Shown: positions 40,460 through 56,713 of the stretch, piece after piece
Position numbering within the stretch: the first letter of the stretch is position 1
Layout of the letters: each line of letters opens with the position of its first letter
Source: a virus
DNA length: 64,000 nucleotides
Direction: 5' to 3' (one strand)
Virus record (IMG/VR): IMGVR_UViG_3300018475_000123
Notes under the pieces: model-generated
What the model was told of the DNA's origin: nothing
Seen by the model: only the letters and a program-made list of their open reading frames with translations
Databases searched by the model: none
Translations under genes and position numbers: made by a program

Positions 40460-41661
40460 TCTTCGTCACCTGCCTTAAAGTTGTAGATAGGCTTGATGAC
40501 TGCTTCGATTGTGACTGTAGGCTCGATGTTGTCAACAATATCGGACATATTCTTATATGCCATCGGACACTCGTCAAGCGTGCTCCTACCAACAGAAGTG
40601 GTGTAGATACCGTCCATCTGTTTCTTGAACTCGGACACAGTAAAGGTCTGCTTTGCCGCACTGCGGCTCATCAGACGACCAGCACCATGAGGAGCTGAAC
40701 AGTTCCAGTCTTCGTTGCCCTTACCAACGCAAATCAGACTGCCATCTCTCATGTTAATGGGGATCAACAGCTTTTCACCTGCCTGCGCAGAAACTGCACC
40801 CTTGCGGAGGATCATGTTATCCACATCGATGTAGTTGTGAATGGTGGTGAACTGCTCAACAACATGGAAGCCCATCTCTTTTACGATGGTGTCCATCATA
40901 GCCTGACGATTGAGGTTTGCAAACCGTTGAGCAATACGCATATCATGCAGATACTGCTCAAAAAGCTCGCCCTCCACATATGCAAGAGGCTTCGGAATAG
41001 GCGAATGCTTGGACTTCAACTGCTTGAGAACGCTCTGAATCTCTTTCTGACGGCCAGCAGCTTTCAACTCCTCGACCTTTGCATCAATTTCCTCTTTGCT
41101 GTACGAGGTTAATGCTTTGTATGCTGCTTCCTGATAGAAGTTAGCAATTTCAAGGCCGAGATGACGGCTGCCGGAGTGAACTACGATGTATATGTTTCCA
41201 GCATCGTCTTGGTTTGCCTCAATGAAATGGTTACCACCGCCGAGCGTGCCAATGCTGCTGTATGCACGGTCGATGTTTACCTTTTTGGCGCAGCAAAGCT
41301 CTGACAGGTCGATATCCTTGGCAAATCGGTGTTCCTTTTTACGAATCTCAAACCCGGATGGAATACCAGCACGAATTACCTTGTCCAACTTCTGCGGCTC
41401 GATATGCGCTTCCTTGATGCGGATCGTTTCCATTCCGCATCCGATGTCCACGCCAACGAGGTTGGGGCAAATCTTATCCTTGATTGTCATAGTGGTGCCA
41501 ATGGTGCATCCTGCTCCGGCGTGAATGTCCGGCATCATACGAACTCGGCTGCCCTCAATATAGGGCTGGTTCAAAAGGTTAATTACCTGCGAAATCGACT
41601 CGTTGTCAACCACATCGGTAAACACCTTGGCAGTTGCGTATTTGCCCTGCAACTCAATCAT
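40456..41661 (-). CDS. rtcB: RtcB RNA 3'-phosphate/5'-OH ligase
   Basis: MPDIHAGAGCTIGTT, GGGNHFIE, HSGSRHLG and C-terminal HGAGR motifs. Confidence 0.85.
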   Translation of the reverse strand: MIELQGKYATAKVFTDVVDNESISQVINLLNQPYIEGSRVRMMPDIHAGAGCTIGTTMTIKDKICPNLVGVDIGCGMETIRIKEAHIEPQKLDKVIRAGIPSGFEIRKKEHRFAKDIDLSELCCAKKVNIDRAYSSIGTLGGGNHFIEANQDDAGNIYIVVHSGSRHLGLEIANFYQEAAYKALTSYSKEEIDAKVEELKAAGRQKEIQSVLKQLKSKHSPIPKPLAYVEGELFEQYLHDMRIAQRFANLNRQAMMDTIVKEMGFHVVEQFTTIHNYIDVDNMILRKGAVSAQAGEKLLIPINMRDGSLICVGKGNEDWNCSAPHGAGRLMSRSAAKQTFTVSEFKKQMDGIYTTSVGRSTLDECPMAYKNMSDIVDNIEPTVTIEAVIKPIYNFKAGDEE

Positions 41662-41681
41662 AGGCTTGCCCTCCTTGAGAC

Positions 41682-42485
41682 TTACTGAATGACGGACACC
41701 TTCTCGTGCTCGCCACGGAAAATGCTTTCGGATGTGAACACATGGGTAATCAACCCATCTGTCAGAACTGAACCATCACGAATGGTATTTTCGCAATGGG
41801 TAACATAGAGGAAAATGTTTTCCGCACCAGCCTCTTTCAAAGCCTTTGCGGTGTGGGTAAATGTGCCACCACGGGAACAGATATCATCAACGATAAGGAC
41901 GGTTCTGCCCTCGACTTTATCCGCACCAACCAGTTCGAGCTTCTGGATTTTGCCAGTACGCCAATCTCTGTGCTTGATGCCGAACACATAGTCGCCCTGG
42001 ATTTGGGAAGAGTACCGCTTCGATGCACCCTCATCGGGATAACAAAGCAGAATGTCCTGCTTACCAAAGGTTTCCCGGATATTCTTCATTACAAACTCTT
42101 CCACGCATCTGGTTACACCAATCGACTGGAAGCGGTTAATCAGAGCTTCAGACACACTGGAGTGAGGGTCATACGCCGTAACCGAGTCAAACCCCAGTGC
42201 GTTGATGAAGTCGGCAAACCACTTGAGCGTAAACACTTCGTCGCCACTTTTCACCCTATCCATTCTGGCATTGGGGATATAGGGCATAATGAGGTTGATT
42301 TCCACGGAACGGTCTCTGTTTGAACGAATGTGGTTGGTAAGGTGCCAGACGAGAATACATTCGTGGTCACCATCATACAACCACTTAATATCATAGGTCA
42401 TTGCCTTACCAGTGTCAAACCGGAATGAGGTTGTACCGTCGGGAAAAGAGGTAAAACTGACTTCCTTTCCGTTCACGAAAATCAT
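41682..42485 (-). CDS. ribose-phosphate pyrophosphokinase homolog (Prs-like or Adps-like)
   Basis: PRPP-binding loop RTVLIVDDICSRGGTFTHTAKALKEAGA. N-terminal Prs-like domain. Confidence 0.7.
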   Translation of the reverse strand: MIFVNGKEVSFTSFPDGTTSFRFDTGKAMTYDIKWLYDGDHECILVWHLTNHIRSNRDRSVEINLIMPYIPNARMDRVKSGDEVFTLKWFADFINALGFDSVTAYDPHSSVSEALINRFQSIGVTRCVEEFVMKNIRETFGKQDILLCYPDEGASKRYSSQIQGDYVFGIKHRDWRTGKIQKLELVGADKVEGRTVLIVDDICSRGGTFTHTAKALKEAGAENIFLYVTHCENTIRDGSVLTDGLITHVFTSESIFRGEHEKVSVIQ

Positions 42486-42486
42486 A

Positions 42487-43041
42487 TTACGCCTCCCAGT
42501 TCTCGATGTTGATCTGGCACATCTTCATGGCAGCCAGCGCATTTGCATGGCTCTCAGGAGTGACTCCAGCACAGCAGGCCGCATCAACAGACAGCTTGAC
42601 TTCGGGCAGGAACGCCTTGATGAGCATGGCGTTGGAAATGACGCAGATGTCAGTACACAGACCGACGAGCGTGATCTCTTCGATTGGATTTTTCTTGTTC
42701 ATCTGAGCCAGCCAATCGGCAAGCTCGATGGAGCCAAAAGTGCCTTTCAGGAACACCTCGGCATCTTTGCCCTCCTTGGTGACCTTGGCATCGATAGCCT
42801 CATACACATCCTTGTGCAGTTCCCAGCCATCACTCAGATGACTGCAGTGGACAACGGGAAGCAGGCGACCTTCCTGAGTGTTGAGGTAATCCTCATAATG
42901 CGTATCATGCGTTACCGCATAAACGCCATCGAAGTTGTTGATTTTCTGGACAACATTGGGAACGATCTCCTGCGCTTCCTTAGAACCAAGAGCGCCAGAG
43001 ATGAAGTCACCCTGCATATCCACGACTACGAGAACCTTCAT
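42487..43041 (-). CDS. isochorismatase-family cysteine hydrolase (nicotinamidase PncA-like)
   Basis: KVLVVVDMQGDF and catalytic GLCTDICV motifs. ATG at 43041; the track start is a GTG. Confidence 0.7.
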   Translation of the reverse strand: MKVLVVVDMQGDFISGALGSKEAQEIVPNVVQKINNFDGVYAVTHDTHYEDYLNTQEGRLLPVVHCSHLSDGWELHKDVYEAIDAKVTKEGKDAEVFLKGTFGSIELADWLAQMNKKNPIEEITLVGLCTDICVISNAMLIKAFLPEVKLSVDAACCAGVTPESHANALAAMKMCQINIENWEA

Positions 43042-43190
43042 TCTTCGCACCTTCCTTTATTGATGTCGTCTTTATTTCGTTTGCGATTATACGCTTTCTT
43101 ATTCGGAACAATCTGAGTAACGGGGCGAGCGCACGACCAGAAATTCCTGGACTTTTTCGCTTTCTGCTTTTTCTCATTCTTTTCTGTCAT
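43038..43190 (-). CDS. 50-aa Lys/Arg-rich small protein, translationally coupled to the PncA-like gene (ATGA overlap)
   Basis: Strong RBS ggaggtg 6 nt upstream of the ATG at 43190. Below the 60-aa cut-off of the ORF track. Confidence 0.35.
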   Translation of the reverse strand: MTEKNEKKQKAKKSRNFWSCARPVTQIVPNKKAYNRKRNKDDINKGRCEE

Positions 43191-44041: not shown

Positions 44042-44132
44042 TGGCTGGGGTAGCAGGACTTGAACCTGCGGTCGAGGGTAAACCTCTTGTCGGAGTCAAA
44101 GTCCGATGCCTTACCAACTTGGCGATACCCCA
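44042..44132 (-). tRNA. class II tRNA (long variable arm) with encoded CCA; the hand-folded anticodon reads UUG
   Basis: Acceptor TGGGGTA/TACCCCA, D-arm GCC-AAGTTGGTAA-GGC, anticodon arm TCGGA-CTTTGAC-TCCGA, stem-loop variable arm, T-arm GCAGG-TTCAAGT-CCTGC, 3' GCCA. Confidence 0.6.
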
Positions 44133-44290
44133 ATATTGATGTTCGGTTCCTGTCATTACACACGCACGACTCGCACCGGAGTCGAACCAGTTTCACCGAA
44201 AGCATCACCTATCAATGCTTACCAGCCGTGCAAATAATGGCAGATCAGAAAGGGATTGAAATCACCGCAGCCCAACACCAACTGCGGCAG

Positions 44291-44366
44291 TGGAGCTGGT
44301 GACAGGGATCGAACCCGCGACCCTCGGAGTACAAAACCGATACTCTACCAACTGAGCTACACCAGC
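44291..44366 (-). tRNA. tRNA-Thr (UGU)
   Basis: GCTGGTG..GCTCAGTTGGTAGAGT..TCGGT-TTTGTAC-TCCGA..GCGGG-TTCGATC-CCTGT..CACCAGC-T-CCA. Confidence 0.7.
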
Positions 44367-44680
44367 AGAAGAAAAGGGAGCCTAAACAGCGTGGTCGTTG
44401 CCTTACGCAATCACTGTTGCCCTCCAAACGGAGGTCTCAGGGGTACTGGTTTGCTCCCTGCTCTACTATTACCCCTTGTTCGATGTGCTCACTGGCACCC
44501 CAGTGCAGGCACTGAGTTTGTTTGAAGCCATTTCCTTGGCAGGTCGAAGCTAACCTCGCCGGTCTTCACGCACCCGGTCTGCGCCCTGCTGACGGGACTG
44601 ATCCCACATCTCGGGAGGAAGTGCGCACTTCAAGAGATGTCTGATACCGTCGCCCCTGTACGCTGCCAGCTTTGGGAGCT

Positions 44681-44756
44681 GGAGCTGGAAATCGGAATTG
44701 AACCGATGGCCTGCACAGTACGAAGGTGCCGCTCTACCAACTGAGCTATTCCAGCA
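44681..44756 (-). tRNA. tRNA-Thr (CGU)
   Basis: GCTGGAA..GCTCAGTTGGTAGAGC..GCACC-TTCGTAC-TGTGC..ATCGG-TTCAATT-CCGAT..TTCCAGC-T-CCA. Confidence 0.7.
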
Positions 44757-44768
44757 AATAAGTGGTGC

Positions 44769-45443
44769 TCAAATCGGCACCACTTTATTAAAGAGAGCAA
44801 CGAACTGCTCATTTACCTGCTTGTCAACATGGTAATGGCCGAAATACCACCTCTTGAACTTAAGCTCTGAATAGATACGCTCAAGAAAGCTCACGACCGG
44901 ATCGTTTTCATACCATGGTGAGAGAAGCATTTGAACACTTCGAGGCGCACAGTGAGTGATGGCATAGTCAACCTTCCAATTTACCGCATCGAGACTGGAT
45001 ATGGCATACTCCATCTCTTCTCTGGATGGGATTTCTTCTTTCCACCAGGAAATATGCTCAATGCGATGCTCTTTGTCGATTGACCTTGCACCACCCATGA
45101 CAAATATCTTCTTTCTGTCGATTGTCAAAACCTGACCTCTTTCCAGATGATAAATGTCCGGTGCAATCTCTCGCACATAGCCGCCGAACTTCTTTTTCAG
45201 TGGCATACAACGGAGGATATCGAAGTTTTCATGGTTGCCATCAACGAAAAGCGTTACGAAATTCTTGTTTGATAGCCAATCTTGCCAGTATATCTCTCTG
45301 GCAGAGCCGTCCCACACAAGGCCAAAGTCACCACAAATAATGAGGTAGTCTTTTTTCGTTAGCTCTTTTTGTTGTGGAAAGTTCGTAGTGTTCAGTTTAC
45401 TTATGTCGATATTGGCATGGGTATCGCCAGTGACATAAATCAT
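44769..45443 (-). CDS. metallophosphoesterase (lambda-PP-like Ser/Thr phosphatase fold)
   Basis: GDTHAN, ICGDFG and GNHENF motifs. Confidence 0.65.
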   Translation of the reverse strand: MIYVTGDTHANIDISKLNTTNFPQQKELTKKDYLIICGDFGLVWDGSAREIYWQDWLSNKNFVTLFVDGNHENFDILRCMPLKKKFGGYVREIAPDIYHLERGQVLTIDRKKIFVMGGARSIDKEHRIEHISWWKEEIPSREEMEYAISSLDAVNWKVDYAITHCAPRSVQMLLSPWYENDPVVSFLERIYSELKFKRWYFGHYHVDKQVNEQFVALFNKVVPI

Positions 45444-45842
45444 TCTGTCACCTCCGTATGGTTTGGAATACCTGTGATCTCATAGGATATAGGATCATGG
45501 CCATCTGGAGACACTGGGACTCAAGAGCTGAGGCTGATGAGATGCCTCTTGATTTTTTGTCGCCAAATGAGGGATTTGGATTGAGACTTTTGGCTGGGAA
45601 TCAGGCGAAACCAGATTTCTGGGGGTCGGCGGGTGACCGAGGATCACCGGCGAGCCGATCGGCCACCTGGCGGAAGCGTTCGACGGCGCATCCTGCTGCC
45701 GTCCGGCTGCCGCAGCACGCCTGCTGCAGGTGCCCTTCAGGCGCCTTCTCTTCAGGCTGTATCCTGCTTCTCAGCTATTTGTTACTCACACCATCGGCGA
45801 TGAGCACCACATATTTGCGGTTATTCATCACAGGTATTTCAG

Positions 45843-46979
45843 TTATCGCAAATCTTCTCGGATATCCCGCAGAACATCTGCGCCCATTTTTTCGTTGATA
45901 TGTTTGATGATGCCGTCGATGGCATCCTTTTCTACCATGCGGTAGTAGTTGTAGTAGCCGTCCAGAACCTGAACATCATGCTTATCCCAAGAGACGCCAT
46001 TTCTGCGATCCAGAATGTAGCTGTGCAGCATACTCTGGAACTGGCGCTTTCTCTTGTGGCCGACAGTGATTTCGTTGTCCTTGTTCAGCATCACTCCGAG
46101 ATTCCAATTCCGTCCTGCGGAGGAACCATATCTCGTCTTGGCACTGTTAATAGTGAATGGCGCATTGAACTCGGCCAAAACATCCACAACGGCCTTTTCA
46201 ATCGCCCTCACATCAAAGGTGTACTTTGAGGAGATGATAAAATCGTCGGCATATCTTGTGTATGTATAGCTCTGCTTTTCAAAATCCCTAAACTTATTTG
46301 CCAACTTATAATCAATAGGAATCATCATAACATTGGTGATAAGCGGAGAAATCGGGGTTCCCTGCGGGAGACCACCATTCAGAAAAGCCAGTTCAAGAGC
46401 AGTTCTCAGTTCGCTTTTACCGATCTCGTACTTGACGATTTCACTGAACGGAAAAATCATACTGAACTGTTGCATGACAAAGTCAATGGTTGTACTTCCA
46501 AAGAAGTTGGACAGGTCATACTTACCAAACCACTTGCTGTCATTTTTCTGGTGACGCTTTACTGCATCGATTGTGCTTCTACCTTTCACATATGCAAACG
46601 CAGAAGTGTGATAAAGCGTGTGGAAATACTCTTCAAAGATGGTTTTCAGCCTTCGGAGTGCATCCATCAGTTCCGGCTGTGGGGCATCAATTCGGCGCAA
46701 GCCACCGCTTTTCTTAGGAATATAGAAAGTGGTGTAAATATCTTCACGCTTTTTCTCACGAAGCGTAGCTGTGCTCTCATTGAAACGAACCAGATGCTGA
46801 ATCAGCTCGGTTACATCAATGCTGTCCTTAAAACGATTGCTGATATGATCGAACTCATAGGTTCTTGTGTTGCCAATATTACGATTGACGACCGGACTGT
46901 CTTCATAAGACTTAAACAAAAATTCCTCCAGTGTCATCTGGTGATACATGGGGGATTGCATGACTGTGATGTAAACCAA
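45843..46979 (-). CDS. reverse transcriptase, stand-alone (retron-, DGR- or defence-RT-like; no maturase, endonuclease or other fused domain)
   Basis: RT motifs FAYVKGRSTIDAV (motif 2), GLPQGTPISPLITNVMM (motif 4) and YTRYADDFIIS (motif 5, YADD). Thumb-like INSAKT...ITVGHKRKR is similar to the retron Ec86 thumb. Confidence 0.75.
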   Translation of the reverse strand: MVYITVMQSPMYHQMTLEEFLFKSYEDSPVVNRNIGNTRTYEFDHISNRFKDSIDVTELIQHLVRFNESTATLREKKREDIYTTFYIPKKSGGLRRIDAPQPELMDALRRLKTIFEEYFHTLYHTSAFAYVKGRSTIDAVKRHQKNDSKWFGKYDLSNFFGSTTIDFVMQQFSMIFPFSEIVKYEIGKSELRTALELAFLNGGLPQGTPISPLITNVMMIPIDYKLANKFRDFEKQSYTYTRYADDFIISSKYTFDVRAIEKAVVDVLAEFNAPFTINSAKTRYGSSAGRNWNLGVMLNKDNEITVGHKRKRQFQSMLHSYILDRRNGVSWDKHDVQVLDGYYNYYRMVEKDAIDGIIKHINEKMGADVLRDIREDLR

Positions 46980-47374
46980 CTTTTACACCTCTTTTCATAT
47001 TAGGATTTATCTGTAACCAACACAGGTATTGGATGTCGGCGATGATCTTAAGAAGGATCGTATTTACCTGGATTACGAGAGTTCAGAGGCAGAAAGTCAA
47101 GAGGCTTTACCAGCGAAATTAAATAATTTTGCTGGAAAACCGCCAGCGGATGGCGGGCGGGTGACGAATCCGACGCGTCTTCGGCCCGTCGACCTTCCAA
47201 CGGAGGTGGTTCGAGTCCTGATGACGACTCAACCCTGCTGCATCGAGCTGCAGTCCCGGGCTCTCATCTGGGGCTTCTCCTCCTCATTCTCCACAAGTTG
47301 TTACTTCAGCTATCGGCGTGAAGCTCCTCTTACACGAAGAAGAAAATGCGTTACAGATATTGGTGTGTTTAGGG
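46980..47374. other. about 395-bp structured non-coding region immediately 5' of the RT gene (candidate RT template or ncRNA)
   Basis: No credible ORF. Nested inverted repeats, including ccagcaaaattatttaatttcgctgg and gacgcgtc, plus a tRNA T-loop-like ggttcgagtcc element. Confidence 0.3.
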
Positions 47375-48214
47375 TCACACCAAACCCAAAAGTGCAAGGA
47401 TTTCTTCGGTTGTTCCTACAGCCATAGGCTGTACATCAAACGGGATCAGTTCATAAATTCCGTCTGCAATTTCCTCGACCTTGGCATCAAGACGAATTTT
47501 GCAGGTCGGTCGAATACCATGTGCTCTTGCCGGGGTGCTATAACTGACATACCCCATTCGGTCAAGAATGCTTACCGAACTGGCGAAACGATCATGTTTA
47601 TCAGCAAGGAAGTACGGCATGAACTGAACCTCGCCCTCGTAGCCAGTCATCCGACCTTTTCTATCGATCAGGTCTACGGATGGATGGGCACGAACACCCT
47701 TTTTCTTGAACAAGTTGAACTTGCTGTCCCCGAACACATCCGCCAGTTTGGGGAGACGGATTTTAGAAGTGATCTGGTCTTCACCAACTGTGAATGTCTG
47801 CGGAAGAATACAATTCAGCTCAAATTCCTCGAAGTGATAGAGGAAGCCACAGTGATCTGCGTATGTACCGATATGACCCTCAATGTCACTATACTGTCTG
47901 CTCGGGGCGTTATCGTTTGTATGCTGAGGGATATACCAGGAAGTTTCGGTGCTGTTCAGGAAACAGTGGATGTTGGAGAGCAGGTAATTCGGATTACCGG
48001 GCCCCATGTATGTAGAGCCGTTGTCTCTTACGGCCTGTTCTTTTGCGTCAAAACACAGGAAATCCAGCGTGTTTGTAGCGATAAAATCGCCGTTTGGAGT
48101 TGCTTTCGTCCACGAGATAGGCACCGGCTCGGCCAGATTATCAACGCTATACTTGCCAATGAGCACTTTGCTGCCCTGACGCAGACTCTTTACTGTCGGT
48201 TGCACGATGGCCAC
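47375..48214 (-). CDS. hypothetical protein
   Basis: 279 aa, located between the E1-like gene and the RT-associated non-coding region. Confidence 0.35.
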   Translation of the reverse strand: MAIVQPTVKSLRQGSKVLIGKYSVDNLAEPVPISWTKATPNGDFIATNTLDFLCFDAKEQAVRDNGSTYMGPGNPNYLLSNIHCFLNSTETSWYIPQHTNDNAPSRQYSDIEGHIGTYADHCGFLYHFEEFELNCILPQTFTVGEDQITSKIRLPKLADVFGDSKFNLFKKKGVRAHPSVDLIDRKGRMTGYEGEVQFMPYFLADKHDRFASSVSILDRMGYVSYSTPARAHGIRPTCKIRLDAKVEEIADGIYELIPFDVQPMAVGTTEEILALLGLV

Positions 48215-48238
48215 CTCCTATTGCTTATTTCTTACCGA

Positions 48239-48910
48239 TTAAAACGCATCCAGCATGAACTTGAAGGAGTCGGCAAGGATCAGCTTCTTGATGCCTTTGC
48301 CGTTCCAGAAGTTCATGAAGTTTGCAACACCCAGAGCACAGATAACCCACACAGTGGGGGCAACAGACAGGGTGACATTGCAGGCAGAGACAGGAGTTTC
48401 CTCCTTTGCCTCGTCATGAGTGAAGTTCATGGAGGCCAGGAAGTCCTTCTTCATCTTGTAGTCAGTCCAGTCCGCAGCATAATGCTGGGCGTCTTCCAGA
48501 CGGGTTCTGAAGTCAAACATCGCTTTGACATAAGGATTGTCGATATGCTTCTCGACGATCTGCTTGCGCAGTTCGATGTTGTCTACGCAGAGGAAGACAT
48601 AGCCGGAAAGCTGCTGACCAGTCCAGCCCTTTTCCTGGAACTTCAGGTCGTCGGTAATATCGGGATTGATCTCCGACAGGATATCGGCCAGAGCATTGAT
48701 TTTGCTCACACCAACATCTTTCTGTCGGAACATCTGATTGGCCAGATTCTTAGGCTCGACCACATCAAAGTCCCACAGGGTCATCTTGGTCACGCCAGCT
48801 CTGGCGAGAAGGACAGCCACGGTGGAGCCAACGGAACCGCATCCGATGATGTGGATGCGGTCGTCGTTCTTTTCGGGCTGGAAAAAGTCATAGCATTTGG
48901 ACAAATCCAT
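48239..48910 (-). CDS. E1-like adenylyltransferase (ThiF/MoeB/HesA family, minimal, no CxxC)
   Basis: Rossmann IHIIGCGSVGSTVAVLLARAGV...LWDFDVVEPKNLANQ. 223 aa. Confidence 0.65.
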   Translation of the reverse strand: MDLSKCYDFFQPEKNDDRIHIIGCGSVGSTVAVLLARAGVTKMTLWDFDVVEPKNLANQMFRQKDVGVSKINALADILSEINPDITDDLKFQEKGWTGQQLSGYVFLCVDNIELRKQIVEKHIDNPYVKAMFDFRTRLEDAQHYAADWTDYKMKKDFLASMNFTHDEAKEETPVSACNVTLSVAPTVWVICALGVANFMNFWNGKGIKKLILADSFKFMLDAF

Positions 48911-48926
48911 CTTTTACTCTCCTCTC

Positions 48927-49877
48927 TTATCGGTAGCCGAAGGCACTGTAAGGGTTCTCATAGTCGTCATCCTCGTAGTCGAAGATGGACTGCTGGTCGC
49001 AGGCATTAGCTGCAGCGGCACCCTTCCAACCCGCGCCGATCTGCGTCTTAGGCTTTTCCTTCTTATTGTCTTTTTTGCCCTTATCATCCTTTTTGCCGCT
49101 GGCGGGAGTGACAGGGGGCGCTCCGTTTGCAGGAGCGGGAGTGCTGGACAGCGGATTGTATGGCTTGCCGTACTGCTGACCACCATACTGCTGACCGTAC
49201 TGGCTTCCGGTGGTGGGAGCCTGATAACGGTAAACCTTATCCTTTACCATTTCCTTGGCATCCTTAATGAACGCATCGAAACCAACGGCAGCATCATAGA
49301 TTTTGACATCGATGTCACCATCCTCAAACAGAATGTTCTTCTGGAGGTCATAAATCTTGATGTTGCGCTTGAAGGATTTGTTGTAGATCATGAAGATGTA
49401 GAAATCTTCATTGTTGAGCTGAGCCAGAATTTCCTCCTGATGACTCAGGTCAACACCGGAGGGATTGGGAGCCATATTCACATGGGAATGACCTTGCATA
49501 TGAATGTTGTAGAACCGCTCGTCCTCGTCATTTTCCATCAGCCAGATGGCATACTTTTCAGTATCCATCTCGACCGTAGAACCGGTGACTTCCTGCGGAT
49601 AAACGAGAATATCCTGAATGAGATACTCGTGAGCACCCTCGGTATCCAGACGATGGGCTACACCGTGCCACGCCACTTCCTTGCTGAACTCCTGCAGAAG
49701 CATGAGCATCTTCGTCCATGCCTCGGCAGTGAAATAGATAGTTGCTTTCTGCTTGTCGATGCTGAAAGTCTTGGTGAAAGAAATCTTGCCATCGGCCAGC
49801 TTTGCATTCTCCAATGCTTTCTCAAAATCGATGCGACACTGGTCTTTATACTCCTGTGTCATACGAATGATCTTACT
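48927..49877 (-). CDS. JAB/MPN (JAMM) metalloprotease with Gln/Tyr/Gly-rich low-complexity C-terminal tail
   Basis: EVAWHGVAH (conserved Glu) and JAMM HMQGHSHVNMAPNPSGVDLSHQ (HxHx7Sx2D). Tail QYGQQYGGQQYGKPYN. Start trimmed to MSKIIRMTQEYK; the track start is 50003. Confidence 0.65.
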   Translation of the reverse strand, partial: SKIIRMTQEYKDQCRIDFEKALENAKLADGKISFTKTFSIDKQKATIYFTAEAWTKMLMLLQEFSKEVAWHGVAHRLDTEGAHEYLIQDILVYPQEVTGSTVEMDTEKYAIWLMENDEDERFYNIHMQGHSHVNMAPNPSGVDLSHQEEILAQLNNEDFYIFMIYNKSFKRNIKIYDLQKNILFEDGDIDVKIYDAAVGFDAFIKDAKEMVKDKVYRYQAPTTGSQYGQQYGGQQYGKPYNPLSSTPAPANGAPPVTPASGKKDDKGKKDNKKEKPKTQIGAGWKGAAAANACDQQSIFDYEDDDYENPYSAFGYR

Positions 49878-51339
49878 CATGCGCTGCTTCCTCCTGTTCT
49901 TCCGTCCCATTAGCCGCCTCCTGTTCCTCAAGCCACTTGATTGCGGCAGCGGGCTTAACATAGCTGCCGTCCGGCAGTTCGATAATGCTCTTTCCGTTGC
50001 CATAGAGGCTGTTCATGAACCTGCTCATGACGGTAGAGTCGCCCCAGTTCAGGCTCTTGCAGGATGCGATACACTGCTCAAGGGCGCCGATGTAGTTGTT
50101 GTCTTTCAGCAACTGATTGATGGTGCGCTCATAACCACCCATACAGTGGAAACTGTTGATGTGGGTATTGGGCATACAGTTGCCGAACTCTGCCGGAAAT
50201 TCATGGTCAGTCAGTGCGGCAACATTACCGTTCAGGTTAAACCGATAGGCTGCGCAGAACTTGATGCGCAGAGTTTCATCGATGAAGATAGCCTTAATCA
50301 ACTTTGCCATCTTTTCGGGAGCAATGGAGCCTCGTGCGCTGTTGTACACGAAACTTCTGTTGTTGCCGAGGATGCGCTCGACCATGTCCTTGTCGAAGTA
50401 GGAGAGGTAGTCCGCAACGCAGAAGTACATCTCCGTATTGGTGACATGCTCCAGATAGAGCTTGTTGTTGCACAGGAAGTAGTCCATGATCTCGGAGTCT
50501 TCGCCACCCTGTGCAATCTTCTGCTCAAGGCCGAGCAGACGGATGCAGTAGTCACGGCGAACATTGTACTGAGAACCAATAGCCTCATTCAAACGCTGGA
50601 TTTCATTGTCCGTCTGGGTGATCTTGTTGCGAACCTTGTCACACTCGATTTGTTCGTAGCGATGCTCAAACCCGGCAAGCATCTGACGGATTCTCGCCGT
50701 TCTGAAGTCGTACTTCTCGGCAATCTGCCGGATACAGGCTTCATACTTTTCGGATGTGCGCTCCTTGAGAGACTGGATCAGCTCCATCTCAAGCTCGGAG
50801 ATACCCGCCTCGGGGTTGAAATACCAAGGCATAGCAGGTAGGATGGCCATCTGCAGGTAGTGCATTTTCTTGATGTCCATGCTCTCCGTGAACAGAACCA
50901 CATTCTTCTTCGTGGGGTTCACATAGCAGATAACCGGGAAAGACTTCTTAAAAAAGGCCGTCATCTTATCGAGTCGGTAGTAGCCCTCATACCGGTCGGT
51001 AAAGCCCTTTTCGATAATCTTCATGTTGGCAAGATTGCTTTCCTGCGAAGCCTTGAAGTTATGTACGACGAACACGCCGTTGGAGCTGAGGTACATCGAA
51101 CTGGTGATGGCTTTCACGCAGTCACTCACCGGAATGCCGTTGATTTGGCTCGTCTGGTAATTGCTGCTGGTGAACTGCAGGGTGATGCTGTCCTCTGCAC
51201 CGATGCGAGGCGCCAACAAAGCTCTCAGCGTTGCGAGGAACGAAATATCTGACAGGTATGCGTCGCCGTTGATGTTCTGGAAAAACGAGTTGGCAACATC
51301 AGAAGTGAGCGGCGTTTGAGAAATCGTCGTCTTGAACAT
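49873..51339 (-). CDS. hypothetical protein
   Basis: 488 aa, no recognised motif. Confidence 0.35.
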   Translation of the reverse strand: MFKTTISQTPLTSDVANSFFQNINGDAYLSDISFLATLRALLAPRIGAEDSITLQFTSSNYQTSQINGIPVSDCVKAITSSMYLSSNGVFVVHNFKASQESNLANMKIIEKGFTDRYEGYYRLDKMTAFFKKSFPVICYVNPTKKNVVLFTESMDIKKMHYLQMAILPAMPWYFNPEAGISELEMELIQSLKERTSEKYEACIRQIAEKYDFRTARIRQMLAGFEHRYEQIECDKVRNKITQTDNEIQRLNEAIGSQYNVRRDYCIRLLGLEQKIAQGGEDSEIMDYFLCNNKLYLEHVTNTEMYFCVADYLSYFDKDMVERILGNNRSFVYNSARGSIAPEKMAKLIKAIFIDETLRIKFCAAYRFNLNGNVAALTDHEFPAEFGNCMPNTHINSFHCMGGYERTINQLLKDNNYIGALEQCIASCKSLNWGDSTVMSRFMNSLYGNGKSIIELPDGSYVKPAAAIKWLEEQEAANGTEEQEEAAHE

Positions 51340-51364
51340 ATAGACACCTCACTTAATAATCGCT

Positions 51365-51450
51365 TGGTGGGGGATATCGGGGTCGAACCGATACGGTGAA
51401 ACACCAGCGGAACTTAAGTCCGCTGCGTCTGCCAATTCCGCCAATCCCCC
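51365..51450 (-). tRNA. tRNA-Leu (UAA)
   Basis: GGGGGAT..anticodon arm GCGGA-CTTAAGT-TCCGC, long variable arm, TCGG-TTCGACC-CCGA, ATCCCCC-A-CCA. Confidence 0.7.
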
Positions 51451-51502
51451 ATGAAAAAGGCCGCCCCGAAGGGCGGCCATGGGGTTATGTACGCCGGGTG
51501 GC

Positions 51503-51733
51503 TTAGGCGGCGTTGTCCGCCTTAACCACATTCAGCAAGAAGCACTTCTCGGTGATGCCGAAGGAAGCGAAGGTCTTGTCCAGATCGCCGGGGTTCAGGG
51601 AAGAACCATCCAGGTGCATCACGCCACGGGTGTAGTCGATGCCGTTGGCCTCCAGGGCGGCACGCAGGGTGGTGTTCTCGTCGATGATAACGGACTCGCG
51701 CTTGACATTGTTGCCGACAGTAACCTTAATCAT
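51503..51733 (-). CDS. 76-aa protein with ubiquitin-like (beta-grasp) secondary-structure pattern; no terminal Gly-Gly
   Basis: MIKVTVGNNVKRESVIIDENTTLRAALEANGID...; the length and alternation resemble a beta-grasp fold. Weak. Confidence 0.25.
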   Translation of the reverse strand: MIKVTVGNNVKRESVIIDENTTLRAALEANGIDYTRGVMHLDGSSLNPGDLDKTFASFGITEKCFLLNVVKADNAA

Positions 51734-51818
51734 AGTAGTAGTCTCCTTTATTTCATGAAATTTTTTGGATTGATTGATGATTTAGGGGTGGGCAATTACG
51801 CCCACCCCGAGGGGGTCA

Positions 51819-52223
51819 TCACTGAGCGACGGAGATGTTCTCCATCACAGCGTCCTTCTCAGCCTTGACCTCGGCCAGGGCAGCCTCGAACTGAGCCTCA
51901 ACCTTGTTCAGGTTCAGGATGGCGACACCGACAGCGTCAGCCACATACTGCTTGGCATCTGCCACATTGCGGGGCAGAGTCATAGTGATGGTGGCCAGCT
52001 TGGCCTCGTCGTGGGTCACGCTGCCGAAGCTCGCACCGTACTGGGTGATACCGCCCTCACCGGTAGTGGAACCGACCTTGAAGACTTCCTCTTTCTTGCC
52101 GTTCTCACCGGTCTCGTACAGGCACAGAGCCTTGGGACGATACTTCTCCAGCAGCTTGATGTCCTCCAGCTTCTGAGTGGAAGTGATGACGACAGCGTCG
52201 CCTGCGATAGTGATCTTTGCCAT
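51819..52223 (-). CDS. hypothetical protein
   Basis: 134 aa. Confidence 0.3.
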   Translation of the reverse strand: MAKITIAGDAVVITSTQKLEDIKLLEKYRPKALCLYETGENGKKEEVFKVGSTTGEGGITQYGASFGSVTHDEAKLATITMTLPRNVADAKQYVADAVGVAILNLNKVEAQFEAALAEVKAEKDAVMENISVAQ

Positions 52224-52421
52224 GGTTATGTACTCCTTTTATACAAAATGTACTCCATTCAGCCATTCCTTTCGGAAGCCCACCCATACCACGAGGAGGC
52301 GGAGCCGTTATGGGCATAAGAAAGGCCACCCCTTACAGGGTGGCCGAGAAACTTGGTAGGCAATCGGCGTTTTGCCCTCCTGTACGGAGTTGCGAAAACG
52401 CCTCGCTATTAGGTTTTTTGG

Positions 52422-53081
52422 TTAGAAGCTGAAGCCGAAAGACACGCCAATACTGTAGCTGGCGGCGTAGTAGTAGGCGTTGCCGTTGGTGTAGACAAAA
52501 CAGAAACTAGTGCTGTTGCTCGAACGAGGAGAACGCAAGAACCTACCGGTTCTTTGTCCGTTGCAGAGCTTGTACCAAGGCACATCCTCCATACGGTAGT
52601 ATTCATACCATTTACCCTCGCCAGGAGCAGAGTAGATGTTTCTGCCGAACACCTCTTTTTCAGAGGTGACGAAGAACTTGTTCACAGAGCGGGTCAGAGT
52701 GTTGGTGCCGTCGTAAGTTTCTGCTGTCCACTTGACCACAGGTTCCGCAACAGCAATGATGTCATCAGGGATAAGTCTGAAAATATCACCATCAGCATCA
52801 TTCATCTGATGGCACAGGTGGGAGGCACCCCAGTTGCCCTGGTTGGTATCCCGTCTGTTCATATAGTAATACTGCGGCAGACAATCCACCAATTCCCACG
52901 ACAGAGGCAGGATCGAACCATCCTCTGCTTCGTCATGGTTGCGACCAATGATGTGGAACTGAGCAGGGGTTCCGTCCTTGAGTACGACATTCTTATAGTC
53001 ACCAGCTTCAAAAACGAGGGGCGCCATGCTGCCGTATCCCTTGAGCGAGTGCCATGAATAATCGTCTAAGCATCTTGCCAT
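52422..53081 (-). CDS. hypothetical protein with Asn/Tyr/Ser-rich C-terminus ending in alternating aromatics
   Basis: ...RSPRSSNSTSFCFVYTNGNAYYYAASYSIGVSFGFSF. Confidence 0.3.
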   Translation of the reverse strand: MARCLDDYSWHSLKGYGSMAPLVFEAGDYKNVVLKDGTPAQFHIIGRNHDEAEDGSILPLSWELVDCLPQYYYMNRRDTNQGNWGASHLCHQMNDADGDIFRLIPDDIIAVAEPVVKWTAETYDGTNTLTRSVNKFFVTSEKEVFGRNIYSAPGEGKWYEYYRMEDVPWYKLCNGQRTGRFLRSPRSSNSTSFCFVYTNGNAYYYAASYSIGVSFGFSF

Positions 53082-53090
53082 GATTTATCC

Positions 53091-53729
53091 TCACTTTCTG
53101 GTGACTTCCATTGCTCCGGTCGTACCTTCATCATCCACATCGAGATACGGGTACTCCACATATGATTCCTCACCGGTTTCTTCGTCAGTGACAAATGTAG
53201 GGCGATAAACGGAGATCAGATGTTCCTCGGCCAGAAGCATACAGAACGAATCGAGCAGTTCTTCGATGATGTCTTTCCCGTACAGTTCAGTGATTTGGCT
53301 GGGGCTGTTGCAGTTGAGAACGACTTCAAGGAAGTCCTGCATAGCAAATGTGAGGGCATCCTCTCTTTCGTAAATCTCATCTTCCATCATCTGCATTTCC
53401 ATCTCTGCAGTGATTTCTTCTTCGTCCTCTTCGAGATCGGACTGGAAGCTGTACTTGGTATCATGCACAACAACCGGGAACAGATACTTCAGGTAAATCT
53501 GTTTGGTTGTCAGTTCACTGTCAGCCGCAGAGACAGCGCCCTCCTCGTATAGCTTGGTATCTTCCTTATAGACAGACAGGAGGGGGCATCCGTTTTCTTC
53601 GGTCAGATAAACTGAATGACAGGTTTCCTCATTTTCGGCAATCGCCACCATTTCATTTTCCAAGCGTGCCTTGTTCTCTGAGAAGAACGGCCATACTTCT
53701 GTGGGTTTCAGATGGATATTCACGCCCAT
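53091..53729 (-). CDS. hypothetical acidic protein
   Basis: 212 aa, Glu/Asp-rich. Confidence 0.3.
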   Translation of the reverse strand: MGVNIHLKPTEVWPFFSENKARLENEMVAIAENEETCHSVYLTEENGCPLLSVYKEDTKLYEEGAVSAADSELTTKQIYLKYLFPVVVHDTKYSFQSDLEEDEEEITAEMEMQMMEDEIYEREDALTFAMQDFLEVVLNCNSPSQITELYGKDIIEELLDSFCMLLAEEHLISVYRPTFVTDEETGEESYVEYPYLDVDDEGTTGAMEVTRK

Positions 53730-53755
53730 ACTGGCTACCTCCTTAATATTTCAAA

Positions 53756-53831
53756 TGGTCTGAGTGGTGGGACTCGAACCCACGACCTCATGGGCCCAGG
53801 CCATGCGCTCTACCAACTGAGCTACACCCAG
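53756..53831 (-). tRNA. tRNA-Pro (UGG)
   Basis: CTGGGTG..GCTCAGTTGGTAGAGC..CATGG-CCTGGGC-CCATG..GTGGG-TTCGAGT-CCCAC..CACTCAG-A-CCA (C33 unusual, G37). Confidence 0.6.
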
Positions 53832-53965
53832 ATAAAAGTGACCAGCTTTTCGATCCAACCCAATGGGAAAAGGAGTAGTTGTGAGGGGACACAAAGGAGA
53901 GGGGTTTGGGTACTGGTCATGAGGATTCTATGAGTAAAGAGAGAAAAGAGGTTCCCCTTTCGGGG

Positions 53966-54056
53966 TGGCGGAGCAGACTGGACTCGAACCAGCACGCCCT
54001 TTCGGGCTACTCACGGTTTAGCAAACCGCTGCCTTACCAGTTAGGCTTACTGCTCC
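53966..54056 (-). tRNA. tRNA-Ser (GCU)
   Basis: GGAGCAG..anticodon arm GCGGT-TTGCTAA-ACCGT, long variable arm, TTCGAGT T-loop, CTGCTCC-G-CCA. Confidence 0.65.
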
Positions 54057-54294
54057 ATATGTGCGCTTGCCGCTTAGATTGTCATATCGTCTACTTGAGA
54101 GTAAAGGTCTCGTTCGTAAGCAACCGTGTATACCCAGTTGCTCCGCAGTTTTCAGCGACCATTGTTATTCTTCGTGAGGTGATGCGCTACGCTCACATCA
54201 GACGGGAGCTACCCGTCAACCGGGAAATCCCACCTTTCGGACGCATCCTCCAGGCAGTTGCAAGCCCCACAAGCATCTGCAACTTTTAAGGGTC

Positions 54295-54385
54295 TGGCGG
54301 AGGTGGTAGGATTTGAACCCACGGACGGCTCGCACCGTCAACGGTTTTCAAGACCGCCGCCATAAGCCAGACTCGGCCACACCTC
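54295..54385 (-). tRNA. tRNA-Ser (UGA)
   Basis: GGAGGTG..GCCGAGTCTGGC..CGGT-CTTGAAA-ACCG, long variable arm, GTGGG-TTCAAAT-CCTAC, CACCTCC-G-CCA. Confidence 0.65.
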
Positions 54386-54389
54386 CATA

Positions 54390-54668
54390 TTAAACGCCAA
54401 GAAATGCCGCAATATCGGCACTTTCAGCCGTATCGAAATCCGGCATTTCTTTTTCAACAAAACAGTTTCCACACCAAGTGTGGTTCCCGTCGTCAATGTC
54501 GATGCTGTACCCATAAGTACCGAAAGTATCATCCATGTACTTGTGCGTGATTTCTGCTTGTCTGGACACATATTCGTCCATGGTTTCCACCCAACTAAAT
54601 GGGCAGTCTTCGTATGGGGTATCTACGACAGTTACAATGTCGCCAACTTCAAACTCGTTGTAGTTCAT
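54390..54668 (-). CDS. hypothetical protein
   Basis: 92 aa. Confidence 0.3.
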   Translation of the reverse strand: MNYNEFEVGDIVTVVDTPYEDCPFSWVETMDEYVSRQAEITHKYMDDTFGTYGYSIDIDDGNHTWCGNCFVEKEMPDFDTAESADIAAFLGV

Positions 54669-54686
54669 AAGACCACCTCTCAGTTG

Positions 54687-55079
54687 CTATGAAAATAGGA
54701 ACGAACTCAACTCCGCTTCATTAGCGGCTTCAAATTCAGGTGCAGACTCTACGCCATTGCACATGGCAATGAACTCGTCCACCGAGCATAGAAACCACTT
54801 ATCATCATCCGGCATCAGCTCGGGATAATCGTTCTCGAACTCTTCTTCGTAATATGTACGACTGCAATGACAAACCACTTTGTTTGTGGACTCGATATCG
54901 AAACAAGTGCTTTCACGATAATCGCTCCATCTGGGTTCAAGGCCGCTGTCCAGTGGATCATGGGTGTCCCATTGATACCCATTGTCTTTTAGAAACTCGA
55001 TCAGCATCTCCGCTGCTGCTCTGCTGCCTGTTGCGATGACAGCAGTACGGGGAAATACACATCCCTCCAAGTCAATCAC
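54687..55079 (-). CDS. hypothetical protein
   Basis: 130 aa. Confidence 0.3.
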   Translation of the reverse strand: MIDLEGCVFPRTAVIATGSRAAAEMLIEFLKDNGYQWDTHDPLDSGLEPRWSDYRESTCFDIESTNKVVCHCSRTYYEEEFENDYPELMPDDDKWFLCSVDEFIAMCNGVESAPEFEAANEAELSSFLFS

Positions 55080-55113
55080 TCCCCATATCGTTTCTTCTTA
55101 CCAAAGTGTTGTT

Positions 55114-55440
55114 TTATCGGATTCCATCTATCCACACCTCTAAAGTGTGGCGATTGGCAAATTGCTTACAAAGCTCTTCGATAGACACGCCATATGCTTT
55201 TGCATCTTCTTTCATTGATACAAACTGGTCTTTGTACTTCTTAACCAGTTTCTCGACAGCAAGGAAGTGTGCCTTGTCTTTTGGATAGTAGGAGATATCC
55301 TCAAAGCGGACTTCGCTTATATCTCCTGTGTGAAAGATTGCTTTCCAACAATCTTTACAGGGTTCGTCTTCCGGCGATACCATATGATTAACGCAGTTAC
55401 CACAATGAACAACCACGCCGTTTACTTTAATTGGCTTCAT
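55114..55440 (-). CDS. hypothetical Zn-finger protein
   Basis: VHCGNCVNH..PCKDC. Confidence 0.3.
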   Translation of the reverse strand: MKPIKVNGVVVHCGNCVNHMVSPEDEPCKDCWKAIFHTGDISEVRFEDISYYPKDKAHFLAVEKLVKKYKDQFVSMKEDAKAYGVSIEELCKQFANRHTLEVWIDGIR

Positions 55441-55455
55441 TGGCGGTTTTCCTCC

Positions 55456-56268
55456 TTACCTCCAATTTGTTGCAATCTTACCGTCTGGATGGATGATGAT
55501 GTTGGAGTAACCATCCCGATAATCGTTGTGCTGTTGCTGCCACATATCCCCGAGTGTTACTCTGGCGTGTTTACCAGCATAGTCAAATGTCGCATAGACA
55601 AAGAAATCTCCTATGCGGAATGTGCGAACATCGATTTCAGCATCGTTCTGCAGATCATTCCAGATATCTATCGGATAGTCTTTCTGTTCAAGTCCGCTGA
55701 GAAACCGGAACGAAAAAGCATTTGCGTCCATCTTCATATAATCTTTGATGAACACCAGCGTTGGGTTCTCAACTACAGTTTGAACTGTACACCCAGGGAA
55801 GTTTCTGGGATTCGGATGTACAAATTCATTGCAAGACAGGTTTATATGTGCCAATCCATTCAGTTCTGTGCTAAAGCCAGAAGTGTTGATGGAACAAAAG
55901 ACAACATTGCTATGACTTCGGTATGTATCAACGATTTCCGCAATGTGTTCAGGATACAGCCCAGGTTCTCCGCCAGTAATCGTGAGTCTGGCATTGGGGT
56001 GCTCTTCCAAAACACGCTTTAGTGATTCGATTTGTGCAGGAAAATCATTATTCCCGGTCATTGGATGCTGCCGCTCCAAACAGAACGGGCAATGGAATGG
56101 GCACTCTTGCGTTGTGATTAGCTGCACATTGATACGGTAGTACAGAGGGCGACCAAGAGAGGTCTTTTCTTGTCTACTCTCAAGGCGATACTGCAAGTCT
56201 GCATTCATTTCAAACCTTATATCGTCATAAGAGCGAATGAATGGGATGAAGTTCATTTTGCTACTCAC
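55456..56268 (-). CDS. radical SAM enzyme
   Basis: CxxxCxxC cluster QECPFHCPFCLER and SAM-binding TITGGEP. 270 aa. Confidence 0.65.
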   Translation of the reverse strand: MSSKMNFIPFIRSYDDIRFEMNADLQYRLESRQEKTSLGRPLYYRINVQLITTQECPFHCPFCLERQHPMTGNNDFPAQIESLKRVLEEHPNARLTITGGEPGLYPEHIAEIVDTYRSHSNVVFCSINTSGFSTELNGLAHINLSCNEFVHPNPRNFPGCTVQTVVENPTLVFIKDYMKMDANAFSFRFLSGLEQKDYPIDIWNDLQNDAEIDVRTFRIGDFFVYATFDYAGKHARVTLGDMWQQQHNDYRDGYSNIIIHPDGKIATNWR

Positions 56269-56292
56269 TCGTCACTCCTCCTTTACTCTGTT

Positions 56293-56402
56293 TGGTGGGA
56301 AGGGATGGATTTGAACCACCGAAGTATTACTGACCACACGGCGCCCCAAGTCGAAATACAGAGATTTACAGTCCCTTGCTTTGGCCGCTTGCATACCTTC
56401 CC
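56293..56402 (-). tRNA. tRNA-Tyr (GUA)-like gene of 110 nt with an about 39-nt structured variable arm
   Basis: GGGAAGG..anticodon arm AGGGA-CTGTAAA-TCTCT, variable region GTATT...AATAC with an internal stem, GGTGG-TTCAAAT-CCATC, CCTTCCC-A-CCA. Confidence 0.55.
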
Positions 56403-56637: not shown

Positions 56638-56713
56638 TGGTGGAGATAGTCGGGATCGAACCGGCGACCTCCTGCTTGCAAGGCAGGCGCTCTCCCATCT
56701 GAGCTATATCCCC
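56638..56713 (-). tRNA. tRNA-Ala (UGC)
   Basis: GGGGATA..GCTCAGATGGGAGAGC..CCTGC-CTTGCAA-GCAGG..GCCGG-TTCGATC-CCGAC..TATCTCC-A-CCA; G3-U70 Ala identity pair present. Confidence 0.75.

Follow-up and report, generated by a model that had tools for sequence, protein, structure and literature searches.

Organisation of the locus

The viral record IMGVR_UViG_3300018475_000123 was analysed as a single stretch of 64,000 nucleotides, hereafter referred to as the window. All credible genes of the window are encoded on the minus strand, and the coordinates given below refer to this strand unless stated otherwise. The element described here is a gene block that comprises, in the direction of transcription, genes for a 134-amino-acid protein (orf134), a ubiquitin-like protein (Ubl), a 488-amino-acid protein, a JAMM/MPN metalloprotease and a minimal E1-like adenylyltransferase, followed by a structured non-coding RNA (ncRNA) and a reverse transcriptase (RT) of the retron clade. 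The same block was identified in about 290 phage and metagenome-assembled genome (MAG) loci. A first inspection of the sequence, referred to here as the original prediction, had pointed to the RT, its non-coding leader and the E1-JAMM pair.

Reverse transcriptase

The RT gene (45843..46979) starts with a TTG codon, is preceded by a GAGGTG ribosome-binding site and encodes a protein of 378 amino acids, which matches the Pfam family RVT_1 (1e-20). In comparisons with PADLOC models the best match is RT_II-A (3.5e-49), and the top 25 matches are all retron RTs. The RTs of the retrons Ec83, Ec78, Ec67 and St85 are the best matches in PDB. Among the NCBIfam models, retron St85 scored 183 bits, compared to 95 bits for group II, 40 bits for Drt2 and 30 bits for Drt3a. 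The retron-like character that had been suspected for the protein agrees with the best matches in all three databases.

The motifs IPK..GG.R, D155, LPQG.P.SP, YADD and K281 are invariant in 21 divergent RT homologues, which reach down to 41% identity, indicating that the RT is under selection as a polymerase. A Pfam scan yielded no maturase, endonuclease or other additional domain, in line with the earlier description of a YADD-type RT free of the first two. When aligned to the RT of Ec83, the motif NAKIH of the latter corresponds to AVKRH and VTG corresponds to NLG, so that only H143 and G295 are kept. The protein also carries an N-terminal extension of approximately 60 residues. Judged from its sequence, the RT is a divergent new branch within the retron clade.

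Non-coding RNA upstream of the RT gene

The 395 nt upstream of the RT gene (46980-47374) hold no plausible minus-strand open reading frame (ORF) and fold better than 100 of 100 shuffled sequences (z = -2.69), which agrees with the predicted structured leader of about 400 bp. A retron msr/msd region was one of the options named for this leader, and it is the one that is supported: the best matches of the RT are retron RTs, and inverted repeats a1/a2, a G after the 5' arm and covarying msr hairpins were all found. The resulting msr-msd like unit, here called unit 1, is 352 nt long (47008..47359) and was delimited by the inverted repeat, by covariation and by a covariance model. Its arms a1 (47359-47350) and a2 (47017-47008) form a perfect 10-nt inverted repeat whose copies are 332 nt apart, and a2 ends 28 nt ahead of the RT start. 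Arm a1 is followed by the candidate branching G (47349), hairpin 1 (47343-47325), hairpin 2 (47324-47303), a conserved tail AACAACTTG (47302-47294) and a variable template (approximately 47293-47018).

In related loci the long-range repeat occupies the equivalent place with other sequences, e.g. TATCTGTAAC, GAATTGTAAC, GTCTGTATT, TTAGTTCAAA, GTTTCTGTAAT and ATCGTGAT. A G always comes next after the 5' arm; AG usually stands before the 3' arm, whose end lies 20-50 nt ahead of the RT start. The G is invariant in the alignment and abuts the 5' arm in every unit for which an a1/a2 pair was found. On its 3' side follow 5-6 unpaired bases and two adjoining hairpins, the first of 3-11 bp and the second of 6 bp, a bulge and 3 bp, and then the tail AACAAnTTG.

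The msr-type fold is formed individually by 25 divergent sequences in single-sequence folds. In an alignment of 25 sequences, in which the arms were anchored by hand in a way that favours helix 1, pairing amounts to 90.6% in the a1/a2 helix and hairpin 2, compared to 27-41% when the partner strand is slid. Changes on both sides were observed in 17 of 19 pairs, and the observed pairing was reached by none of 500 shuffles. Hairpin 2 was recovered by RNAalifold without anchoring. The covariance model scored 61.6 bits on unit 1 (E = 5e-10). Comparison of the leader with Rfam, including its retron msr family, gave no match at the gathering threshold, with only chance-level hits at E-values up to 10. 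Based on its arms, candidate branching G and hairpins, unit 1 has the layout of a retron msr. Ahead of unit 1 and of the second unit described below, the minus strand showed no sigma-70-type promoter.

The sequence ggttcgagtcc, which had been likened to a tRNA T-loop, lies inside the non-conserved template and no tRNA is predicted there, and for these reasons we attribute the resemblance to chance. Just before a1 of unit 1, an 8-bp hairpin GGTGTG..CACACC (47360-47383) spans the stop codon of the preceding 279-amino-acid ORF. A GC-rich hairpin with a T-run is found at the same spot in the L029 group of loci. The hairpin could serve as a terminator or as a processing site.

Further ncRNA units and their distribution

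A second unit of 372 nt (45467..45838), delimited by the covariance model and its arms, lies directly 3' of the RT stop codon. Its arms a1 (AATACCTGTGAT, 45838-45827) and a2 (ATCACAGGTATT, 45478-45467) pair over 12 bp. Arm a1 is followed by a G (45826), and AG stands ahead of a2, which ends 24 nt ahead of the start of a metallophosphoesterase gene. The msr-like part (45836-45773) lies 5 nt past the RT stop codon. The covariance model, which was built from the msr part of the units, scored 32.7 bits on unit 2 (E = 2.5e-4 over the whole window, 2e-6 locally), and the minimum free energy fold of this unit retains the closing stem (z = -3.97). Units 1 and 2 are exactly the two matches to the model in the window, even with filters switched off.

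Beyond the window, the model yielded 184 matches in 76 related loci and 57 matches in 70 independent MAG loci outside model building, all of them on the RT strand. The same strand was found for 318 of 318 matches obtained with nhmmer, which relies on sequence only. With this program at least 94 of the 203 distinct loci were found to have an upstream unit and at least 66 a downstream one; representatives of far groups that were missed showed an equivalent layout on inspection. In 130 of 191 distinct units the G is abutted by an arm of 8 bp or more that pairs perfectly, by Watson-Crick rules, with a partner 120-480 nt downstream; among random control positions this holds for 7 of 573. AG precedes a2 in 140 of the 191. 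For 55 units whose loci were not part of the seed set, aligned by fitting to the model, hairpin 2 is 97.3% paired (31-51% when slid). A scripted census based on an inverted repeat, a G and two hairpins was positive in 190/203 cases, but was discarded because shuffled and shifted controls passed it at 67-84%.

Related loci feature one to four units per RT, always on the RT strand. Downstream of the RT gene, relatives carry one or two units; the commonest arrangement among close relatives is a single unit ahead of the gene and a tandem pair behind it, and in others, units are located kilobases away. The units range from 214 to 374 nt in length, with a1/a2 stems of 6-14 bp each and a tail of 11 nt behind the two conserved hairpins. 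In the L047 and L048 lineages a unit is found directly ahead of the gene for the 488-amino-acid protein, where it fills the gap between this gene and the Ubl gene that is occupied in the window by a tRNA-Leu(UAA) gene (51365-51450). Taken together, we regard a retron-type RT accompanied by multiple template RNAs as highly probable.

The gene after unit 2 (44769..45443) codes for a calcineurin-like metallophosphoesterase of 224 amino acids (Pfam Metallophos, 1.3e-11). In many relatives this gene follows the last ncRNA unit. It is a frequent neighbour, though not a universal one, and was not detected near the RT in far groups. The debranching enzyme Dbr1 is a member of the metallophosphoesterase superfamily. 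A Dbr1-like debranching role for the phage protein was considered and set aside as speculation, given that no PDB sequence match was obtained and that the gene is not universal.

Evolution of the template and possible roles of the units

The template between the conserved tail and a2 spans 190-280 nt, is A-rich and T-poor, and has neither a conserved sequence nor a conserved fold. For pairs of loci with RTs of 99-100% identity, four-fold degenerate sites of the RT gene are 98.9% identical and the templates 94.2%. For RT pairs of 97-99% identity, the respective values are 95.4% and 88.5%. The template evolves 2.5-5 times faster than the four-fold sites, an estimate based on non-independent pairs and on a measure with saturation near 74%. 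In the comparison of relatives the msr part is 97-100% identical. The template shows a higher proportion of transversions than the RT gene does. The fast change could stem from diversifying selection, from recombination or from RT errors that are returned to the genome.

A fast-evolving template next to an RT is also what could be expected of a diversity-generating retroelement (DGR), and the strand complementary to unit 1 holds an ORF of 132 codons (47029-47427), which would suit a system with protein-coding cDNA. That the element is a DGR, a group II intron remnant or a DRT2-like system of the latter kind is nevertheless extremely improbable, as the RT is of the retron type and Rfam finds no intron or other family. 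A DGR template repeat had been among the proposed identities of the leader. A blastn search (word size 7) of the leader against the 64-kb window returned the self-match only, so no second copy is present there; the RT is not of the DGR type, and the substitutions lack an adenine-specific bias. A group II RT within intron domains, named beforehand as an outcome that would contradict the assignment, was not found either: there is no intron RNA, and the group II model scored 95 bits against 183 bits for retron St85. With DRT2 and other defence-associated RTs the locus shares a stand-alone RT and an adjacent structured template RNA, but its Drt2 and Drt3 scores are far lower (40 and 30 bits), it lacks a conserved cDNA-sense frame and it has the a1/a2 and G layout of retrons. 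A Neo-like protein encoded by the cDNA was rejected, the antisense frame being not conserved and its longest version varying from 37 to 114 codons across relatives.

The position of the units permits another explanation, in which they act mainly as cis-regulatory leaders: the downstream gene would be translationally silent until the RT copies the leader, and the DNA product would serve no other purpose. The units all run in the orientation of the genes and end 15-30 nt ahead of a ribosome-binding site or of the next unit, and a template with a freely changing sequence is compatible with a function that depends on structure and position alone. A precedent is given by the type VI retron Retron-Vpa2, in which the template and a repressed coding sequence are located on one RNA (10.1101/2025.10.22.683967). 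This hybrid RNA is the nearest precedent for units in gene leaders. The present locus resembles it in having a template and a downstream coding sequence on one transcript, with units that, in the window, end 24-28 nt before the start codon. It differs from it by another RT subfamily, by the lack of a helix-turn-helix partner and by several units placed before several genes, and repression is hypothetical here. Since the units are located in 5' leaders, reverse transcription may switch on downstream translation, as in type VI retrons. As the main role of the units we consider this unlikely. Locus L008 has tandem units (7157 and 7435) with no gene in between, and a template that changes 2.5-5 times faster than four-fold sites suggests more than a loss of constraint.

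The ubiquitin-like cassette

The original prediction reported no Ubl or ThiS ORF with a terminal Gly-Gly and described a 76-amino-acid ORF as beta-grasp-like with an ADNAA end. This ORF turns out to be the Ubl that had been sought. The 76-amino-acid product of the gene at 51503..51733 is a beta-grasp Ubl according to its AlphaFold2 model, Foldseek and profile comparison. The model (predicted local distance difference test score of 68) features a beta-beta-alpha-beta-beta-(3-10)-beta topology with a flexible tail. The top 50 Foldseek matches are all SUMO, ubiquitin, NEDD8, TtuB or ISG15 (probability 1.00, TM-score of approximately 0.6), and the profile gave weak matches to ubiquitin, ThiS and TtuB. 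The Ubl is the best-conserved protein of the block, with 92-97% identity where the RT is at 70%. Its C-terminus follows the pattern K-x-D-[N/G]-[A/G] with 0-2 additional residues (DNA, DNAA, DNATR, DGGRQ, DGGI). Most members end in D-N-A and a few in D-G-G with one or two further residues or in D-G. In a weak profile alignment, N-A aligns with G75-G76 of ubiquitin.

The E1-like adenylyltransferase of the ThiF family (48239..48910, 223 amino acids; Pfam ThiF, 4.9e-23) has UBA5, MoeB, Uba1, MccB, ThiF and Cap2 as PDB matches. Its GxGxxG motif, D110, R115 and Cys177 in TPVSAC are invariant. The JAMM/MPN metalloprotease gene more likely spans 48927..49841 (304 amino acids from the likely start) than the longer ORF at 48927-50003, because homologues begin at MSKIIRM. 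The JAMM motif E..HSH-x7-S-xx-D is invariant and consists of E109, H172-S-H174, S182 and D185 in the numbering of the long ORF. The family profile matches Rpn11 (E = 1.4e-3), and PADLOC JAB matches are weak. The tail of the protease (48927-49400) is Q/Y/G-rich, then Lys-rich, and closes with a conserved acidic ..DDDDxPY.. end. The Lys-rich part could bind nucleic acid. The Q/Y/G-rich tail noticed earlier is real, though variable. Both members of the predicted E1-JAMM pair were confirmed, with the correction that the E1 gene lies one gene upstream of the leader. The ORF in between (orf279, 47375..48214, 279 amino acids) is an optional insert outside the conserved core: about half of the relatives carry it, and others lack it or have something else in its place. 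Its sole match is a weak one in PHROG, to the N-terminal part of a Hoc-like head decoration protein, and its similarity to orf219, a gene flanking the block, is not significant, so the two could not be regarded as paralogues.

The 488-amino-acid protein (49873..51339) consists of two alpha/beta domains joined by a long helix. It has an invariant PN-x-H-(5)-C motif, with C399 as the cysteine, which resembles HPN...C of E2 enzymes. No support for an E2 assignment beyond this motif was obtained, NCBIfam models being among those tried, and the motif makes an E2/RWD-like C-terminal domain possible. The 134-amino-acid protein (orf134, 51819..52223) is always paired with the Ubl gene in a conserved position. 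It was considered as an E2 or as a second Ubl and rejected for both, as it lacks a conserved Cys, a PDB match and profile similarity to the Ubl. A second copy of this gene pair, coding for a 131-amino-acid protein and a Ubl-sized protein of 75 amino acids, is located downstream of the RT in L073 (17269-17980) and also in L074, L075 and L026.

We consider it likely that Ubl, E1 and JAMM protease form a genuine set. The choice between ubiquitin-like conjugation and a sulfur carrier that had been put forward for the E1-JAMM pair is supported, and it is extended by the Ubl, the invariant Cys of the E1 and the possible E2-like protein. As regards the second option, the cassette could be a sulfur-carrier pathway of the ThiS/MoaD/CysO/TtuB type, with orf134 or the 488-amino-acid protein as partner synthase, perhaps in nucleoside or cofactor modification. 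It shares with the CysO/MoeZ/Mec+, QbsE/QbsC/QbsD and TtuB/TtuC systems a minimal ThiF/MoeB-like E1 and a JAMM protease able to trim the carrier, as well as a small carrier of the beta-grasp fold, in some cases extended by 1-2 residues at the C-terminus. In contrast to these systems, it has no sulfurtransferase domain or recognisable sulfur-acceptor enzyme, and it includes a candidate UBC/RWD-like domain that bears a Cys. Rhodanese, desulfurase and PP-loop domains were not found in the block with Pfam and NCBIfam. We regard a sulfur-carrier pathway as rather improbable.

Linkage and distribution of the block

In 72 loci that were collected with the RT as seed, the entire block is found upstream of the RT wherever the locus reaches that far. 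When the protease (JAB) was used as seed, an RT follows the E1 gene in 79 of 80, 77 of 79 and 61 of 70 loci, and in each locus without RT the contig stops short of the place where the gene would be expected. The ncRNA always accompanies the RT. Identity within the block falls to approximately 31-40% for the RT, 30% for JAB and 20-25% for the 488-amino-acid protein. In far groups, the flanking genes orf219 and metallophosphoesterase are lost while the block is kept. Locus L246 is rearranged to the order JAB-ncRNA-RT-E1, and in L244 and L250 the RT is still in or near the block despite inserted stretches of 6-7 kb. On the 244-kb Oscillospiraceae MAG contig L304, only short fragments of orf134 and of the genes for Ubl, 488-amino-acid protein, JAB, E1 and RT were observed, packed within 2 kb (8950-11139); the region resembles a degraded version of the block and might be what is left of a prophage.

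The linkage pattern argues for one module, yet it is compatible with synteny inherited within a single phage lineage. The original question of whether the locus holds one system or two is narrowed by these data: on the one hand, linkage in about 290 loci survives rearrangement; on the other hand, all loci belong to one lineage. Two independent systems would then be adjacent by inherited order, with the retron acting alone through decoy or regulatory DNA and the cassette modifying phage or host proteins. We see this as a realistic possibility, if not the expected outcome. It is favoured by the restriction of the loci to one family of large Clostridia-associated phages and by unrelated inserts between E1 and RT (orf279, an acidic protein, and 6-7 kb in L244, L250 and L155). 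It is also favoured by the terminator-like hairpin ahead of unit 1 in the L029 group and by the retron classification of Mestre et al. (2020), whose 13 described types include none with a ubiquitin or Ubl, E1 (ThiF) or JAB partner. It is disfavoured by the conservation of the block in far groups that have lost the flanking genes, by the relocation of the RT inside the cassette in L246 and by the ncRNA units ahead of the E2-like gene in two lineages. In addition, neither partner is missing from any locus with sufficient sequence. That the RT and the Ubl cassette form one functional system, as suggested by their linkage, is in our view close to an even call, falling slightly short of it.

Comparison with known systems

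Known retrons act in bacterial anti-phage immunity and consist of one RT, one ncRNA and a toxic effector. The present locus shares the RT clade with them, the closest being St85/Sen2 (type II-A) and Ec78/Ec83 (type I-A). It also shares the same-strand ncRNA directly upstream, the a1/a2 repeats, the G after a1, the msr stem-loops and the position of a2 near the RT start. Unlike in retrons, it is a conserved block of a phage family and not a bacterial defence island, and it features two to four ncRNA units per RT where retrons have a single one. With 214-374 nt these units are long, and their template lacks a conserved hairpin and evolves very fast. The RT is distinguished by AVKRH/NLG in place of NAxxH/VTG and by its N-terminal extension of approximately 60 amino acids. 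The neighbourhood of Ubl, E1 and JAMM genes is a further difference.

From the Bil (BilABCD), Bub and CBASS Cap2/Cap3 systems, the cassette is separated by the fact that PADLOC and NCBIfam models miss its Ubl and the 488-amino-acid protein. It further differs from them in the mostly D-N-A end of the Ubl, in an E2 candidate of 488 amino acids with extra domains and in the 134-amino-acid partner. In contrast to those systems it is phage-encoded and linked to an RT. In a literature search that left most subscription journals outside its reach, the combination of retron, ThiF, JAB and phage was not found, retron and ubiquitin-like appeared together only in two general reviews, and nothing relevant was obtained on phage-encoded retrons or multiple templates.

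Proposed function

On balance, we lean towards the conclusion that the locus is a phage-borne retron variant in which one RT is combined with at least two units of the msr-msd type and is tied genetically to a Ubl cassette. By analogy with characterised retrons, the RT would bind the conserved msr hairpins, prime from the 2'-OH of the G after a1 and copy the variable stretch to single-stranded DNA, starting at the position that adjoins a2. With several units, each of them copied, a phage would produce two or more different reverse-transcribed DNAs (RT-DNAs). In the cassette, the E1 (with Cys177) would adenylate the C-terminal Ala or Gly of the Ubl, and the Ubl would be handed to Cys399 of the 488-amino-acid protein and then to a target. 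The JAMM protease would trim the 1-2 extra C-terminal residues of the Ubl and/or remove conjugates. Given the linkage, the Ubl machinery may act for the retron as its effector or partner arm, or may be under its control.

Several observations weigh against the conclusion of a Ubl-linked phage retron. The RT score of 183 bits is below the curated cut-off of 235 bits of the NCBIfam retron St85 family (NF038233), and the retron signatures NAxxH and VTG read AVKRH and NLG in this protein. Across relatives no conserved long hairpin was found in the template, for which fold z-scores range from -4.1 to +1.7. PADLOC gave no match to a known retron effector among the neighbouring genes. The Ubl ends in Ala rather than Gly in most members. 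Production of RT-DNA with priming from the G is presumed by analogy, the role of the G being assigned from its position. The terminator-like hairpin before unit 1 in some relatives could indicate separate transcription, and the universal linkage could reflect inherited gene order, since all loci stem from one phage lineage.

A more far-reaching version of the proposal is that the RT, several RT-DNAs and the Ubl machinery constitute an integrated phage system. Either the RT-DNA/RNA complex would gate or direct conjugation, or the Ubl machinery would modify the RT complex or its targets. We put this forward tentatively and hold it to be doubtful.

Source phage and gene context

The window also encodes a DnaE-type DNA polymerase, a DnaB helicase, a CCA-adding enzyme, an RNA ligase and a DNA ligase, as well as RtcB, NAMPT, a Prs-like enzyme and a nicotinamidase. 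The nearest relatives of the DNA polymerase belong to phages of Thomasclavelia, Clostridioides and Bacillus. Relatives of the RT are located on IMG/VR viral contigs of approximately 60-150 kb, and homologues fall into MAG bins assigned to Oscillospiraceae, Acutalibacteraceae, Ruminococcus, Lachnospiraceae and Christensenellaceae. Based on the gene set, the relationship of the polymerase, the viral contigs and the MAG binning, the window is a piece of a large phage of gut Clostridia that covers a replication, RNA-repair and NAD-salvage region. Isolate phages of the August 2025 phage collection lack the RT; the sole match in this collection is a 35-kb faecal contig (40% identity).

Downstream of the block, a run of likely counter-defence genes extends over 28682-43050. 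The CCA-adding enzyme, the RNA ligase and the DNA ligase are among its members, together with NAMPT (38745-40232), RtcB (40456-41661), a Prs-like pyrophosphokinase (41682-42485) and a nicotinamidase/isochorismatase (42487-43050). This suggests tRNA repair and NAD+ replenishment during infection. ARAGORN called 12 tRNA genes within 44042-61507, among them a tRNA-Gln of unusual length (44042-44132, 91 nt). An Rfam tRNA match of 107 nt (56296-56402), the thirteenth, was not called by ARAGORN and may hold an insertion. The ORF at 52422-53081 has a weak match to a surface/decoration-type domain (DUF6273). Near the end of the window, RAGATH-4 (63381-63518, 104.8 bits) is found close to RAGATH-16 (63693-63763, 83.1 bits), both exceeding the Rfam gathering threshold. 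RAGATH RNAs are structured RNAs that are typically found near self-cleaving ribozymes.

Implications

At its most modest, the finding represents a new retron subfamily that is carried by phages, has multiple templates and is known from about 290 sequenced loci. It departs from known retrons in being fixed in a common family of large gut Clostridia phages, in having multiple templates, in templates that change faster than silent sites and in being invariably partnered with a Ubl together with E1, JAMM and perhaps E2 enzymes. An RT that takes several long templates of free sequence (approximately 200-280 nt) would be attractive for retron genome editing and multiplexed DNA production.

As the block occurs in every examined member of a deeply diverged family, a core step of infection is more likely than an optional defence island, and the block more likely serves host takeover, counter-defence or inter-phage competition. 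If its parts cooperate, reverse transcription would be linked to ubiquitin-like signalling, and viruses, too, would make use of retrons. Should the integrated phage system prove true, the locus would be the first multi-template retron, the first link between reverse transcription and Ubl modification and the first retron that acts as a viral core function. Its fast-evolving templates would then mark the interface of an arms race of these phages with host defences or rival phages.

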